The position numbers were made by a program, and so were the translations under genes. The notes beneath the pieces are model-generated. The model worked only from the letters and a program-made list of their open reading frames with translations, searched no databases and was not told where the DNA came from. Shown here piece by piece: positions 1 to 30,823 of a stretch of 30,823 bases of DNA. Every line of letters begins with the position of its first letter. Position 1 is the first letter of the stretch. The DNA comes from Campylobacteraceae bacterium (lineage in GTDB: Bacteria > Campylobacterota > Campylobacteria > Campylobacterales > Campylobacteraceae): the NCBI GenBank assembly GCA_031266555.1, contig JAISAU010000015.1:1-30823 (forward strand). The letters run 5' to 3'.

Positions 1-175
1 CGCTAACGCTCCTCGCAATGACGAAAATTTTTCAAACTTATATATTCAATTCCTACATGTAAGACATTTTCACACTTATAGTTTGCTATGCAAACTTCGT
101 TTGCTCGCAATGACGAAATTACAATTCTTTGTCGTTATGAACTAAACGTGGCAATCCACTTTTTCATCATTGTGA
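1..175. repeat. Two degenerate, oppositely oriented copies of a ~35-nt box with core CTCGCAATGACG / CGTCATTGCGAG, plus a TACATGTAA motif at 54-62. The window starts inside the first copy.
   Basis: cgctaacgctcctcgcaatgacg (1-23) matches the box at 1650-1683 and 1812-1845. gtcgttatgaactaaacgtggcaatcc (~132-160) matches the inverted copy gtcattgcgagcgaagcgcggcaatcc at 1697-1730. Confidence 0.5.
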
Positions 176-259
176 ATAATTTGTATTGTTACATGCAAGG
201 TATAAGCAAATAGAGTTACAAAAAGCAGAATATAAATTATTCGTATTTGTATCGTTATA

Positions 260-350
260 TGTAAAGCTTGGATTGCTTCGTCGCTAATGCTTCAAGCTCA
301 TGACGGAAAGAGCGGAGCGACTATACGCCGCTCCTGTCGCTCTATCTGTT
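260..350 (-). repeat. 3' flank module of paralog copy 1: a TATATGTAAAG motif, a diverged GGATTGCTTCGTCGCTAA box, and a GC-rich hairpin (AGAGC..GGAGCGG-N9-CCGCTCC..GCTCT) directly after the stop codon. It may act as a terminator.
   Basis: The same module recurs at 1801-1899 after copy 2 and as a hairpin-only version at 3815-3872 after copy 3. The stem complementarity is visible in the sequence; the downstream U-tract is weak. Confidence 0.5.
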
Positions 351-351
351 T

Positions 352-1218
352 TCACACATAGCTGCTAACCACAAATGTTAAGCCATTTATATATGCTTTA
401 CCATCGCCAGTACCATCGTTACCTATTACATTTATAGTAACTCCTTGCGGCATCTCTTGATTGCCATAGTGAAGATAAGTAATAAATACGCGAGTTATTT
501 CCGTGCCGTTTATATCTACTACAGGAGGGTAAAACATTGCTCCAGATTTAAAATCTTTATTAGATTTTTGCATTATAGTGGTATATTGTATGCCATTTAT
601 GGAATATAAGACGTTAATTATACCGTATCCGCTCCAATTGGGCACTGAAGGTGTTAATTTATAGCTAAAATTTATAGAGCTATTAATATCAACGGTATAA
701 TTTTCTAATGTAAATAAGTCTGCAGCTTTTATAGTTTTTTTAAATAGCGTAATCAACATCCGACAAGTTCCCATAGGATCATCTTCTGGTGTAAGACTAT
801 AATATTGCAACGAACCTCCATTATTTTTGCCTGTAAGAGATTGCAAAAAAGAGCTTGAAAATATTTGCTCCATTACTTGCTTTCCGCCGTTTCTATTATT
901 ATCAACAAAATCCAAAGCATGCGCCAAGGTTTGCCCTGCAGTACCTACAAACACAGCTGCATAATTATTGTTTATATCGTAAGGATCATCTGTATCTGTT
1001 CTTATCTCAAACATGATATTGACATAAACATAATCGAACATACTCCAGTCTATATCTGTCAAATCAGGATTCATATTTTGCTCAAGCTCTAATATAACCT
1101 CGTTAAGAGGTAATTCCTCGCCATCTAATTCAACCTCCCTGAACATATTATTGATTATTGTGTAATCCTCAATAAGCTTTTCAAAACTCATCGTACCGTC
1201 ACAACATAAATTTCTCAT
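352..1218 (-). CDS. Paralog 1 of a tandem three-member family of unknown function. It has conserved N- and C-termini, a variable core and no signal peptide.
   Basis: 288-aa ORF. Shares MRNLCC[DN]GTMSFEKLIE[DN]Y, HALDF[VI]DNNRNGGKQVM, ITLFKK, NYTVDINSS, PP[VI]VDINGTEI and the C-terminal NTGDGKAYINGLTF[VI]V..YV blocks with the ORFs at 1900-2760 and 3873-4748. AAGGAG-type RBS (ggagacaagacgATG). Confidence 0.85.
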   Translation of the reverse strand: MRNLCCDGTMSFEKLIEDYTIINNMFREVELDGEELPLNEVILELEQNMNPDLTDIDWSMFDYVYVNIMFEIRTDTDDPYDINNNYAAVFVGTAGQTLAHALDFVDNNRNGGKQVMEQIFSSSFLQSLTGKNNGGSLQYYSLTPEDDPMGTCRMLITLFKKTIKAADLFTLENYTVDINSSINFSYKLTPSVPNWSGYGIINVLYSINGIQYTTIMQKSNKDFKSGAMFYPPVVDINGTEITRVFITYLHYGNQEMPQGVTINVIGNDGTGDGKAYINGLTFVVSSYV

Positions 1219-1563
1219 CGTCTTGTCTCCTTGTTATTTATAAATACATTAGGCTTAGCTTGTTATAGCATTTACCGCCACTTACCGACATCGTTTTATT
1301 TATCTTGCTTTGTTTTTTATGTAGGATTTGACAAAGTTTCAGATAATCCGACACTCTCGTTGGCTTGCCGAGTTGTGAGTTATTTGTTTATTGTAAAAGT
1401 TATGTTGTTTTATCCAATGTATTTGTACCTCCGAGACTAAGGTTAAGAGATTTATAACTCTTTTTTTACATTATATTTATAGGATACTCTTTAATTTCTT
1501 AAAATACTCTTTTGTTTTTATTGGCTTATTTTGTAAATGAATGCAAAAATATGTTACATGTAG
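1219..1563 (-). promoter_or_regulatory. Conserved leader/promoter region of paralog 1. It contains a TACATGTAG motif (~1554-1563), a direct repeat ATACTCTT-N13-ATACTCTT (~1484-1515), a -10-like TATAAAT (~1448-1456) and a ~220-nt putative 5' UTR.
   Basis: The same architecture and many identical sequence blocks are found upstream of copies 2 (2761-3146) and 3 (4749-5234). Confidence 0.45.
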
Positions 1564-29033: not shown

Positions 29034-29217
29034 CTTCTCTCCTTCTTTTGATAAGCTATAAGATAATATCATATAATAGTCATGTAAAAACTAATATTAA
29101 TGGTATGCTTGATGTAAGTGCCAAAAGAAATATATAAGACATAAAAGATTGGTTACATGATTAAATCATAAAAAAACAGACTGAAATTTGGCGTTTTATA
29201 CTTAATTTTAATAGCGA

Positions 29218-29294
29218 TGGTATCCCGAACGCGATTCGAACGCGTGACCTTCAGATTAGGAATCTGACGCTCTATCCAGCTGAGCTATCGGGAC
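29218..29294 (-). tRNA. tRNA-Arg, anticodon CCT.
   Basis: 77 nt with an encoded CCA. Hand fold: acceptor GTCCCGA/TCGGGAT (one G-U pair), D-arm GCTC-AGCTGGATA-GAGC, anticodon arm TCAGA-TTCCTAA-TCTGA (anticodon CCT), T-arm ACGCG-TTCGAAT-CGCGT. Confidence 0.8.
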
Positions 29295-29628
29295 AAAATA
29301 TAAACGTAAATTATGCCAAAAAGCTGTTTAAAATTACCAAAATTCAACTATATTAGTTCACAAAACTTCAAACTTTAAAGGTGACAAAATTAAGCGTTTT
29401 TCGCCCCAAATCACACTAGTAGTTTGATAATAAATTAGAATTTTTTATGAAAATAATATTGTACATGTACGATTTTCGCAGCTTCAATTGTTATTAGCCA
29501 TGTTGACCAAGATAAGCAACCCGGCCTGCGAGAAATTTGTCCGCTGTGGTTTCATCGCTAAAATAAATTTTTTCACATGCAAAAAGACATATCAAATCCG
29601 CACTTAGTATCTATTTGTCAAGATAGCT

Positions 29629-30600
29629 TTATAGCATTTTCTCTTTAAATTGATTAATTAAATTCGGTTCTTTCATTAAAGGTCTTGCCATTCCAAAATA
29701 TTCAATCTTTGTGTGGTTTAATATATCTGTCATCTCTTCAAAATATCTATTGCCGCCGGTCAAAATAATTTTTGTTTCACTCCTATCGGCTATTTGCTCC
29801 GCTTCTTTTTTGAAATACGAGGTCGATTCTTGAGGAAACTTACCAAAAGCCCCGCTGATTTCAATCGCGTCAATTTTTAGTTTTGTTAATTCATCGCACA
29901 GATACAACACATCATCAAAAGCCACCTCGTCTTTAAAACCGTCGTTCGCATTTATTTTTATTAGCACAAGAAAATCAGCTCCTACCGCCTCGCGTATAGC
30001 GCTATAAGTCTCCAGCGACATTCTTGCCCTATTCTCTACGGAACCGCCATATAAATCCGTTCTTCGATTATAATATGGAGTCATAAATTGACTAAGCAAA
30101 AATCCATGAGCCGCATATATTTCGACTCCGTCATAATCGGCGTTTTTTGCCCGCAAAGCGGCTTCGGAAAACTTTTTTTGTATGACTTTTATTTGTTTGA
30201 CCGTTATCTCTTGCGGCAATACTTTCGTGTTTAAATTCTCCACAGCGCTTGGCGCAAGGATAGTCATACCTGTTGTTTCGCCCATCACATAAGATCCAAC
30301 ATAGACTAATTGCAAAATAATGTTAGCACCGTGTTCATGCGCTAAACTTGTTAATGCTTTATGCCCTTCATAAAATGAATCATCGTAAAATGCCAACATG
30401 TGAAAATTTTTTTCAGCTTCGTCAACTAAAGTAAAACTGGTTATTAAAGTTCCAGCTCCTCCAATGGCAAGTTCTTTGTATAATCTCAAAATATTTTCAT
30501 TTACTTGTCCGTCCGATGTTTTCTCACCAACCGCGGCTCGAAAAAAACGATTTTTCAAAGTCACTTGTCCTAACTTAGTTGTATCAAATAATGTTTTCAT
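29629..30600 (-). CDS. NADH:flavin oxidoreductase of the Old Yellow Enzyme family.
   Basis: 323 aa. The OYE signature HAAHGFLLSQFMTP and a TIM-barrel block pattern. GAAGGAGG RBS. A TATATTATAAT -10 sits upstream at ~30625-30640. Confidence 0.8.
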   Translation of the reverse strand: MKTLFDTTKLGQVTLKNRFFRAAVGEKTSDGQVNENILRLYKELAIGGAGTLITSFTLVDEAEKNFHMLAFYDDSFYEGHKALTSLAHEHGANIILQLVYVGSYVMGETTGMTILAPSAVENLNTKVLPQEITVKQIKVIQKKFSEAALRAKNADYDGVEIYAAHGFLLSQFMTPYYNRRTDLYGGSVENRARMSLETYSAIREAVGADFLVLIKINANDGFKDEVAFDDVLYLCDELTKLKIDAIEISGAFGKFPQESTSYFKKEAEQIADRSETKIILTGGNRYFEEMTDILNHTKIEYFGMARPLMKEPNLINQFKEKML

Positions 30601-30823
30601 TTATGCCTCCTTCATCGTTTCTAATTATAATATACAAAATCTTTTTTTATCAATTTATTTTGAATAAATTCGCGTAACTTTTTCATATCCAATAAAACGC
30701 GATGACCAAAGCCGCGAAAGCCGAAGAAGGAGTGAGAATAGAGCTTAGCACAATGACCTAAGTAACCCGTAGCCCAAAACTGCCTACATGTAGCGATGCG
30801 TAAACAGTCCTGTTATGCGACGT

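Follow-up and report, generated by a model that had tools for sequence, protein, structure and literature searches.

The closest described analogues of the DNA word treated here are HIP1 of the cyanobacteria and the DNA uptake sequences of Neisseria (DUS) and the Pasteurellaceae (USS). HIP1 reaches 300-2700 copies/Mb at ratios of observed to expected counts (O/E) of 55-228, and sequences one base off are common (PMC4390886). When methylated, it raises the transformation of cyanobacteria by as much as >100-fold (bioRxiv 10.1101/2024.09.10.611283). The spacing of DUS in Neisseria is ~1.1-1.5 kb (PMC2397512), and C. jejuni imports only DNA that carries the palindrome RAATTY methylated by CtsM (PMC10046745).

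The window analysed here is a stretch of 30,823 nt from the metagenome-assembled genome (MAG) of an uncultured 'Campylobacteraceae bacterium'. This is no Campylobacter in the usual sense, and among named organisms Sulfurospirillum stands closest to it. An earlier reading of its letters alone (the sequence-only reading) had pointed to an over-represented palindrome, TACATGTA, and had offered three explanations: the box of a global dimeric regulator, a sequence of the DNA-uptake type, or the terminal motif of small box repeats. Judged by likeness to known systems, the second of these fits best.

Abundance, sharpness and distribution of the palindrome

There are 20 exact copies of TACATGTA in the window (0.65 copies/kb; Table 1). 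Dinucleotide-preserving shuffles gave an expectation of 0.41 copies and reached 20 in none of 100 cases, and an order-3 Markov model gave 0.73, which corresponds to an O/E of 27-49. The word is the top over-represented 8-mer of the window (z = 19), and the runners-up are overlapping shifts of the same word. The sequence-only reading, which had counted about 19 copies against an expected ~1-2 and put the excess above tenfold, was right on this point. All the copies it listed are real, but the positions given deviate by 0-8 nt from ours (16345 instead of 16352 and 9690 instead of 9697, for instance).

The excess stands in the Sulfurospirillum loci as well as in the window (samples of 12-31 kb). 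The Sulfurospirillum counts come from loci anchored on hemN and selected without regard to the motif. Per 21.4 kb, there are 14 copies in S. deleyianum, 13 in S. diekertiae and 14 in S. oryzae where 0.35-0.44 are expected (O/E 30-40), and the word is again the top 8-mer in S. deleyianum and S. diekertiae (z = 15-17). For the window MAG and several cultured Sulfurospirillum this amounts to ~1 copy per 1.5 kb, or 30-50 times chance. Note that only 12-31 kb were sampled per genome and that whole-genome figures, such as a load of 330-660 copies/Mb (from samples of 21-31 kb), are extrapolations. We did not find an earlier description of hyper-abundant TACATGTA in the literature.

The word is strong in the window MAG and a sister MAG and, within Sulfurospirillum, in S. 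deleyianum, S. diekertiae, S. oryzae and sp. 1307, whereas the sampled loci of Sulfurospirillum sp. 1612, of four closer MAGs and of other relatives (~1 Mb) are without it. The trait is lineage-specific and patchy, and within the 12-31 kb sampled per genome we were not able to find a gene whose presence tracks this distribution. TACATGTA is a highly iterated palindrome, that is, a short exact word found throughout the chromosome of the window MAG, its sister and most of the sampled Sulfurospirillum.

The word is also sharp. Forms with one mismatch are enriched neither in the window (18 against ~12 expected) nor in the window pooled with the sister genome (40 against 52), and the half-site variants described earlier did not hold up. 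Beyond the octamer, the extensions are genome-specific and preserve the palindrome: Y-TACATGTA-R in the window (Y in 16 of the 20 copies, R in 17), TT-TACATGTA-AA in Sulfurospirillum (T at -1 in 96%) and CTC-TACATGTA-GAG in L093. An extension to TACATGTAG(T/C)GCGA, proposed from the letters, does exist in 2-3 copies, but the general extension is the symmetric Y...R. Outside the word, CATG is mildly low in the window (54 against ~100). A type II restriction-modification site avoided by its host was rejected as an explanation, since TACATGTA is enriched and CATG elsewhere is just mildly low.

A palindrome with symmetric extensions would suit a homodimer, and TACATGTA occurs in every sampled region, in clusters of 2-5 copies per spacer and conserved across species. 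It could be the site of an abundant chromosome-organising protein (nucleoid-associated, SMC-loading, or concerned with occlusion or topology), under genome-wide selection for the structure of the chromosome such as Xu et al. proposed for HIP1. Gyrase-binding REP elements sit at gene 3' ends, a likeness that counts for such a role. So does the argument that HIP1 acts in nucleoid structure (PMC5861425). However, protein sites normally tolerate mismatches and the one-off forms of TACATGTA are unenriched; moreover, close relatives are entirely without the word, which would be odd for a core architectural system. Sites such as parS, matS, NBS and SBS are restricted to certain regions and come in tens per genome, against ~1,500 copies of TACATGTA. 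We consider this role unlikely, although it deserves to be kept in mind.

Potentially, the word could also be a Chi-like recombination hotspot for enzymes of the AddAB/RecBCD type, acting after entry of the DNA and not at uptake. It is an exact 8-mer, chromosomally enriched and conserved, and the preprint on HIP1 describes a homology-dependent, Chi-like component (bioRxiv 10.1101/2024.09.10.611283) which counts for this explanation. On the other hand, Chi sites lack symmetry, show a strand bias and are mostly few-fold enriched, whereas TACATGTA is perfectly palindromic, has symmetric flanks and is enriched 30-50-fold. Nor is a preference for spacers typical of Chi. A hotspot of this kind seems improbable to us.

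Placement relative to genes

Although ~80% of the window is coding, 17 of the 20 copies lie outside genes, and 11 of the 15 spacers carry the word. The earlier estimate that about three quarters of the copies are intergenic thus had the majority right and the share too low. Its list of genes with a copy (hemN, 7855; argF, 9697; a gene for 149 aa, 23909) agrees with ours, as do the groups of two or three copies per spacer (6352/6380/6422, 16352/16384/16419 and 25660/25711). In four Sulfurospirillum loci we see 27 coding and 21 noncoding copies, against 3 and 17 in the window. The pooled density is 0.33/kb in coding DNA, still ~20-fold over chance, and 4.5/kb in noncoding DNA.

Table 1. Copies of the palindrome in the window, with their surroundings and their state in relatives
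Word	Position	Surroundings	Relatives
TACATGTA	54..61	noncoding; 290 nt past paralog A stop (gene 352-1218, minus)	
TACATGTA	1555..1562	distal end of conserved paralog A leader; 3 nt from minus-strand -10-like hexamer TACATGTAacaTATTTT	
TACATGTA	1804..1811	88 nt past paralog B stop; adjoins box repeat	
TATATGTA (decayed)	256-263	after gene A, paralogous to site 1804; also adjoins box repeat	
TACATGTA	3137..3144	122 nt past ParE-toxin gene stop; distal end of paralog B leader	
TACATGTA	5226..5233	35 nt past AbiEii gene stop; distal end of paralog C leader	
TACATGTA	6352..6359	cluster of 3, copy 1; 107 nt past Fe-S oxidoreductase stop (6467)	
TACATGTA	6380..6387	cluster of 3, copy 2; 79 nt past Fe-S oxidoreductase stop	
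TACATGTA	6422..6429	cluster of 3, copy 3; 37 nt past Fe-S oxidoreductase stop	
TACATGTA	7855..7862	within hemN, codes Leu-His-Val	kept in sister MAG (L327 11259); Sulfurospirillum has ILV/ITV
TACATGTA	9697..9704	within argF, towards 3' end, codes Leu-His-Val	sister MAG without copy
TACATGTA	16352..16359	cluster of 3, copy 1; convergent spacer between 1439-aa BcrAD/BadFG-type gene and tRNA-Lys	cluster within ~350-nt segment that sister MAG lacks
TACATGTA	16384..16391	copy 2 of same cluster	
TACATGTA	16419..16426	copy 3 of same cluster	
TACATGTA	17585..17592	fills 30-nt ribA-rsmG spacer; 12 nt past stop, 10 nt ahead of start; fused to SD-like AAGG	kept in sister MAG; motif-poor relatives read TTGCATGTGA / TTGCATGCAA
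TACATGTA	23909..23916	within 149-aa gene, codes Thr-Cys-Met	kept even in motif-poor relative L320
TACATGTA	25660..25667	45 nt past alr stop	kept in sister MAG, spacer identity only 76%
TACATGTA	25711..25718	96 nt past alr stop	kept in sister MAG; relative L320 has TATATGTG
TACATGTA	26751..26758	90 nt past TraB/GumN gene stop; region convergent, ORF-poor	
TACATGTA	29462..29469	159 nt past OYE-type flavin oxidoreductase gene stop	
TACATGTA	30785..30792	184 nt ahead of oxidoreductase start, close to window edge	

The spacers differ by type, with 3.1 copies/kb in tandem, 2.0/kb in convergent and 0.5/kb in divergent, promoter-only spacers; the last figure represents 1 copy in 12 spacers. In tandem spacers, the upstream stop is nearer than the downstream start for 19 of 26 copies (p = 0.014). 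TACATGTA gathers in permissive DNA, which is noncoding and stop-proximal and includes convergent spacers, whereas promoter-only spacers are poor in it.

The copies inside genes are found in all three reading frames and in housekeeping genes (for a MidA-like methyltransferase, photolyase, HemN and RsmG). They were created by non-synonymous changes at variable protein positions (for example FTHQ to FTCK, LTSN to LTCN, ILV to LHV), with an insertion of one residue in RsmG. Because of the in-gene enrichment, the use of all three frames and the non-synonymous changes, we conclude that the pressure behind the word works on DNA and not on gene expression.

These positions bear on the global dimeric regulator of the sequence-only reading, for which TACATGTA would be the operator, and likewise on an epigenetic promoter switch that uses CATG methylation. 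A -10-like hexamer lies 3 nt downstream of the word in three homologous paralog leaders and at copy 16384, a few weak -35-like matches employ its TTACA, and at rsmG and lgt a copy overlaps with the ribosome-binding region. However, the three leader copies amount to a single duplicated unit. Divergent promoter-only spacers are nearly empty, copies are closer to stops than to starts, and many lie in convergent spacers or in genes; most spacers are occupied, which does not resemble a regulon, and the word lacks degeneracy and near-misses. The position upstream of start codons that was described earlier is real, but it is merely the other side of being downstream of the previous gene. We have dropped the regulator box, and regard an operator or switch as very improbable.

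Origin and conservation of the copies

Since orthologous sites without TACATGTA are equal in length to sites with it, the copies evidently arise by point substitution and not by insertion. The alignable spacer copies are common to the window and the sister MAG in 3 of 3 cases at a spacer identity of 72-76%, and in three Sulfurospirillum species the copies are fixed while their flanks drift, with small numbers in both comparisons. As judged from these alignments, the copies are conserved more than their background. The one at 23909 is present even in a motif-poor relative and is therefore probably retained through protein constraint.

The word might belong to a repeat, mobile or structural (REP/BIME, MITE-like, or the box-repeat terminus suggested from the letters), or to an intrinsic terminator hairpin. 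The spacer location at the 3' ends of genes and an occasional tandem-like array (L103 4131-4210) would suit such an element, and one copy adjoins a box repeat. But only copy 1804, with the decayed site at 256, does so; the flanks of the copies are unrelated past 10-14 nt and the empty orthologous sites have the same length. The 14-mer is unfolded (0.0 kcal/mol), the 40-nt contexts reach -2.9 against -3.1 for shuffles, none of the 30 terminator-like sites of the window coincides with a copy, and there is no Rfam match. A repeat or terminator is largely refuted and, in our view, extremely improbable. The dispersed repeat family that the sequence-only reading had named as a way to explain the motif away is likewise not borne out, given the unrelated flanks, the substitution origin and the lack of a hairpin.

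In S. barnesii SES-3, CATG is 99.1% m6A-methylated by M.Sba3II, for which a restriction partner is not listed (Blow et al. 2016 supplement); this methylome is that of S. barnesii, and the density of TACATGTA was measured in other genomes. M.Sba3II is apparently an orphan enzyme. With an active CATG m6A methyltransferase in the genus, TACATGTA could be without function, the by-product of a sequence-specific bias in mutation or repair that is tied to CATG methylation. It would then build up wherever selection permits, by a ratchet such as Elhai proposed for HIP1. The origin by point substitution and the highest density under the least constraint would agree with such a bias, and the patchiness could track the gain or loss of one enzyme. 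However, m6A makes no deamination mismatches, the specificity reaches 10-12 symmetric bases, past CATG, and many near-misses would be expected where none are seen and the copies are conserved above their flanks. Known repair biases (e.g. Vsr) yield small excesses, against 30-250-fold for an 8- to 12-mer here. To our knowledge, Campylobacterota are generally reported without MutS1/MutL mismatch repair, which also counts against a bias of this kind. We think it quite unlikely.

A possible tag of self DNA and the known systems

The explanation that we favour, if tentatively and at somewhat less than even chances, is by analogy that TACATGTA is a self-DNA tag for natural transformation or recombination, possibly read in methylated form. 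A two-fold symmetric protein of the transformation or recombination machinery would recognise the word as DNA and would bind or import the fragments that carry it, the CATG core being probably N6-adenine-methylated. Through molecular drive plus selection, as tagged alleles are taken up and recombined again and again, the word would be written into all tolerant positions, first the 3' flanks of genes and next the variable parts of proteins. In favour of a tag we count the density and enrichment of the word, its exactness, the pressure at the level of DNA, the gathering in permissive DNA, the origin by substitution, the conservation, the symmetric lineage variants, the lack of copies in the IS and inovirus-like part of contig L271, the methylated CATG of S. 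barnesii, and the precedents of RAATTY and methylated HIP1. We infer the link of this reader protein to uptake or recombination, the role of methylation and the upkeep by drive. CATG methyltransferases are common in bacteria without an excess of TACATGTA, which counts against a methylation-linked tag, and in the literature we came across no account of Sulfurospirillum being naturally competent.

More specifically, TACATGTA (TTTACATGTAAA in Sulfurospirillum) may be a new palindromic uptake sequence, read in methylated form, with a reader gene that lineages have lost or gained several times, although we hold this to be doubtful. If true, Sulfurospirillaceae-type Campylobacterota would add an uptake-sequence family to those of Neisseriaceae and Pasteurellaceae. 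The methyl-mark discrimination of C. jejuni, the hyper-accumulated uptake words and the cyanobacterial HIP1 would be joined under one principle, and loss or gain of the reader gene would leave sister species with and without ~1,500 copies.

REP and BIME elements of enterobacteria lie at gene 3' ends and in convergent spacers, not in divergent promoter regions, and TACATGTA shares this location, including the avoidance of divergent spacers. REPs, however, are imperfect hairpins of 20-40 nt, linked to RAYT transposases and not in coding DNA, whereas TACATGTA is 8-14 nt long, unfolded, born by substitution and frequent in genes. In C. jejuni, which belongs to the same order (Campylobacterales), the short m6A palindrome RA(m6A)TTY, made by the orphan methyltransferase CtsM, marks self DNA. 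It sets a precedent, as a mechanism, for the reading of a methylated palindrome centred on CATG. In contrast to TACATGTA, a word of 8-12 bp enriched 30-250-fold, RAATTY is degenerate, has 6 bp and is frequent by composition; it is not known to be hyper-accumulated.

DUS and USS are, like TACATGTA, exact short words at ~1 per 1-1.5 kb, with most or many copies in spacers just past genes and in permissive gene parts (PMC2397512). In both cases the copies are well conserved amid more divergent surroundings, and those in genes impose amino-acid changes. The symmetric lineage variants of TACATGTA resemble DUS dialects (PMC3630211) as well as HIP extensions, and one copy of the word equals an inverted DUS pair. 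Nevertheless, the proven uptake sequences (DUS, USS) are all non-palindromic and TACATGTA is a perfect palindrome, which counts against the self-DNA tag. Biased uptake and a dedicated receptor, for example the minor pilin ComP, go with DUS and USS, whereas TACATGTA is known here as a sequence and is patchier among close relatives. DUS are rare in recently acquired DNA, for which we have one hint: contig L271 has 0 copies in its 5.5-kb IS and inovirus-like part against 7 in its 6-kb chromosomal part. They are also rare in accessory DNA, whereas the accessory-looking region 1-6466 of the window (paralogs, ParE, AbiE) is motif-rich, with 8 copies; this, too, counts against a tag.

The comparison with HIP1 (GCGATCGC) shows several differences. 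TACATGTA is AT-rich and belongs to Campylobacterota, it strongly prefers spacers and stop-proximal positions, and a second, 6-mer-specific methyltransferase is not known for it. Its one-off variants are unenriched, unlike those of HIP1, and this sharpness counts against the self-DNA tag. Since word and phylum differ, TACATGTA does not belong to HIP1 proper but is its analogue. In the features of the HIP class it agrees, however, being the top 8-mer, with matching O/E and density, coding and noncoding copies, extensions and conservation (in small numbers). Both are octamer palindromes, tens- to hundreds-fold enriched at hundreds to thousands of copies/Mb, with sites conserved between genomes, palindrome-keeping extensions that differ by genome, and some related genomes without the word. 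A further likeness may lie in the inner 4-mer, which is m6A-methylated by an orphan enzyme in the case of HIP1 (GATC, by DmtA) and by the apparently orphan M.Sba3II in S. barnesii (CATG).

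Abundance of the word and its distribution among genomes

The palindrome TACATGTA occurs in 20 exact copies in the window, while a mean of 0.41 is expected from dinucleotide-preserving shuffles (0 of 100 shuffles reached 20) and 0.73 from an order-3 Markov model. The over-representation claimed in the sequence-only reading is thus confirmed; its list of copies was correct in substance, with a count (19) and coordinates that were slightly off. TACATGTA is the top over-represented 8-mer of the window, and the runners-up are shifted versions of the same word. Coding sequence makes up about 80% of the window, yet 17 copies are noncoding; the three in-gene copies lie in the genes that had been named, that is, hemN, argF and the gene of a 149-aa protein. 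Two other claims did not hold up. One-mismatch forms, which had been reported as half-site variants, number 18 in the window against about 12 expected, which is essentially background, and the reported extension TACATGTAGYGCGA is not the common one, the usual extension being the symmetric Y-TACATGTA-R.

The closest named relatives of the window MAG belong to Sulfurospirillum (HemN about 72% identical). A search for three copies of TACATGTA 15-45 nt apart covered 185,579 species genomes. Most matches were set aside, being either regular tandem or CRISPR-like arrays from unrelated taxa or matches in odd microsatellite-rich MAGs; irregular clusters were found in about 15 loci of Sulfurospirillum, Campylobacteraceae and Campylobacterales genomes, where the word is a longer palindrome, CTTTACATGTAAAG. 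Since these loci had been selected by the motif, we fetched protein-anchored loci for the counts.

Copies of TACATGTA in the loci fetched for counting
Genome or loci	Copies	Length	Expected number, density or remark
Sister MAG, Alr 85% identical (L319, L327)	7 and 6	21 kb each	0.2-0.3 expected
Window-clade MAGs, Alr 83%, 76%, 72%, 71%	1, 1, 0, 0	11.5-21 kb	0-0.08/kb
S. deleyianum	14	21.4 kb	0.35-0.44 expected
S. diekertiae	13	21.4 kb	0.35-0.44 expected
S. oryzae	14	21.4 kb	0.35-0.44 expected
Sulfurospirillum sp. 1307	7	21.4 kb	0.33/kb
Sulfurospirillum sp. 1612	1	21.4 kb	held by conserved protein segment
80 ribA-anchored metagenome loci, other relatives	2	978 kb	22 expected (base composition)

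In the motif-poor genomes we found no substitute "dialect" word, either palindromic or non-palindromic. Together with the counts, this means that the trait is strong, lineage-specific and patchy. Extrapolation from samples of only 12-31 kb per genome gives roughly 1,500 copies per Sulfurospirillum genome. Binding by an abundant chromosome-organising protein is an unlikely explanation of TACATGTA.

TACATGTA reaches a very high density (as many as 55 copies in 8 kb), alongside (TACATG)n microsatellites, in MAGs labelled Nitrospirales (CBDBCZ01), "bacterium" (CBDBZY01) and Stappiaceae (OZ2199xx, "chromosome: 65"); loci of this kind include L008, L011, L020, L021, L027, L029, L046, L053, L072 and L075. 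These contigs may be misbinned, eukaryote-like or a separate phenomenon.

Sharpness and placement of the copies

The word is sharply defined. In the pooled window lineage, exact copies number 31 and one-mismatch forms 40 (52 expected); S. deleyianum and S. diekertiae together have 27 of the former and 18 of the latter (28 expected). The word is flanked by Y/R in the window lineage, by TT/AA in Sulfurospirillum, where position -1 is T in 96% of copies, and by CTC/GAG in one MAG.

In four motif-rich Sulfurospirillum loci, 27 of the 48 copies lie in genes; the coding density of 0.33/kb is about 20-fold above chance, and the noncoding density is 4.5/kb. In-gene copies are found in ordinary enzymes, are read in all frames (LHV, xTCx, YM) and swap residues at variable positions (FTHQ/FNAE to FTCK, LTSN to LTCN, ILV to LHV), with one case adding a residue. 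The pressure therefore acts on the DNA and overrides protein preference. A gene for a MidA-like SAM-dependent methyltransferase (5187-6242 of locus L077) contains five copies in three reading frames within 240 nt, and this cluster is kept with identical spacing in three genomes (L077, L013, L041).

Using database gene calls, we counted 3.1 copies/kb in tandem spacers, 2.0 in convergent and 0.5 in divergent, promoter-only spacers. In the motif-selected loci, where ORFs were called crudely, "divergent" spacers had 4 copies/kb; this value counts for less here than the one from anchor-based loci, for which database gene calls were used. Of the 26 copies in tandem spacers, 19 are closer to the upstream stop (p = 0.014). 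Spacer copies in Sulfurospirillum often begin 4-10 nt past the stop codon, and one 17-nt convergent spacer is approximately the palindrome alone. The spacer-class statistics also speak against a promoter element, for which the matches of a consensus scan were near background. The window has 30 terminator-like sites, and not one of them falls on a copy. The word is not an RNA hairpin, since the 14-mer does not fold (0.0 kcal/mol) and its 40-nt contexts fold no better than shuffles (-2.9 vs -3.1); Rfam and ARAGORN found two tRNAs as the only known RNAs in the window. Restriction avoidance of CATG was mild only. A long repeat or mobile element was rejected after a repeat search and flank inspection, which gave no common sequence past about 10-14 nt. 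Small box repeats, of which the word had been proposed to be the terminal motif, do not account for it either: the flanks are unrelated, no repeat family holds the copies, and just one copy, at 1804, adjoins a box repeat. On the properties of the word as a whole, a classical regulon operator, a REP/MITE-type element and a terminator can be excluded; we consider a regulator site very improbable, and a repeat or terminator more improbable still.

The box repeats (tggattgcttcgtcgctaacgctcctcgcaatgac and variants, at 1-32, 269-303, 1648-1682 and 1816-1850) are a separate small family that does not carry TACATGTA. They lie downstream of paralog genes, which form a set of three on the minus strand (352-1218, 1900-2760 and 3873-4748; N-terminus MRNLCC[D/N]GTMSFEKLIE) and have no Pfam match. 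Each gene is preceded by a conserved noncoding leader of about 300 nt (1219-1520, 2761-3075 and 4749-5075); the leaders have no Rfam match and are conserved better than parts of their proteins. Elsewhere in the window, the flotillin (Band_7/Flot) gene has a 33-nt periodic repeat (22292-22489), which translates into a recurring coiled segment of the type (V/I)A(E/Q)Y(N/D)KEQQV.

Origin, conservation and mobile DNA

The site after the first paralog (352-1218), paralogous to that of the 1804 copy, reads TATATGTA, which was the first sign that copies are gained or lost by point mutation. Orthologous sites in motif-poor relatives have equal length and related sequence (TATATGTG, TTGCATGTGA, TTGCATGCAA), which indicates that copies arise by substitution and not by insertion. 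That a methylation-linked mutational ratchet yields the word is less probable than its binding by a chromosome-organising protein. All three alignable spacer copies are common to the window and the sister MAG, with spacers 72-76% identical, and the word is fixed in three Sulfurospirillum species while the flanks drift.

On contig L271, seven copies lie in the chromosomal half and none in the half with an IS and inovirus-like sequence. A scan of viral contigs gave mostly single chance matches. Several AT-rich phage contigs (L220 358-545, L210, L204, L207; GC about 0.28) carry arrays in which TTGACA/TTTACA hexamers are interspersed among ACTTTACATGTAAAGTTGACA-type sites. These arrays resemble phage operator or promoter clusters; they have the palindrome core in common with the genome-wide word but probably no relation to it. 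In the window, TACATGTA does not occur in a low-GC (0.29) block at 19627-21528, whose three genes encode proteins of 127 aa, 112 aa (DUF4325 STAS-like) and 389 aa (no Pfam match). The sister MAG carries different genes at this position, and the block may represent a small island with accessory or defence functions. Comparison of 26856-26945 with 29218-29320 reveals a tRNA-Arg(cct) pseudo-copy that has decayed, lacks 17 nt internally and is accompanied by about 20 nt of duplicated flank on both sides. The intervening 2.3 kb or so contain a 1.4-kb stretch with few ORFs (26661-28097) and the gene of a Dyp-type peroxidase, an arrangement suggesting that an integration or duplication took place at tRNA-Arg long ago.

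A possible self-DNA tag and known systems

Because of its match to HIP1, the cyanobacterial highly iterated palindrome, and to the DNA uptake sequences of Neisseriaceae and Pasteurellaceae (DUS/USS), and because of links to methylation, we tentatively favour TACATGTA being a self-DNA tag of the transformation or recombination machinery. A symmetric component of that machinery would read the tag, possibly in methylated form, the organisms would be competent, and drive plus selection would maintain the copies. Points against a self-DNA tag, or unexplained by it, are that the trait is absent from close relatives, that there is no one-off enrichment at all, that the accessory-looking region 1-6466 is motif-rich, and that the word is palindromic whereas proven uptake sequences are, to our knowledge, all asymmetric. 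A Chi-like hotspot is improbable and ranks behind the mutational ratchet.

A search of full-text literature on the word, its extensions and Sulfurospirillum gave no description of the word, a methylome table being the sole relevant item. It appears to be a HIP/DUS-type word in a new phylum, palindromic, centred on a probably methylated CATG and with natural controls in cultured species. It would be a case beyond cyanobacteria, Neisseriaceae and Pasteurellaceae. Its carriers S. deleyianum, S. diekertiae, S. oryzae and Sulfurospirillum sp. 1307 are all in culture and have complete genomes, while Sulfurospirillum sp. 1612 and several MAGs serve as controls without the word. This contrast makes the long-standing question of how such palindromes are read and maintained directly testable. 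Sulfurospirillum matter for organohalide respiration, and the methylated word in constructs might make them genetically tractable. For binning and foreign-DNA detection in these lineages, the word provides a sharp compositional marker as well.

Hyper-abundant exact DNA words are rare, and every known case has revealed machinery: HIP1 exposed orphan methyltransferases and transformation effects, DUS/USS exposed uptake receptors. HIP1 is a conserved octamer palindrome with palindromic extensions and variants, a feature matched by TACATGTA. The GATC and CGATCG within it are targets of orphan methyltransferases (PMC4390886, PMC5861425), methylated HIP1 raises cyanobacterial transformation, and HIP1 is now proposed as an uptake sequence (bioRxiv 10.1101/2024.09.10.611283). 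In S. barnesii SES-3, M.Sba3II N6-methylates 99.1% of CATG, with no restriction partner listed (Blow et al. 2016 supplement), and CATG is the core of TACATGTA. In C. jejuni, from the same order, DNA import is limited to DNA with the methylated palindrome RAATTY (PMC10046745). DUS/USS occur every 1.1-1.5 kb or so, mainly in spacers right after genes and in permissive gene parts; they are conserved (PMC2397512) and have dialects (PMC3630211). On our analysis, the properties of TACATGTA appear to match both of these known kinds of hyper-abundant exact words, HIP1 and DUS/USS.
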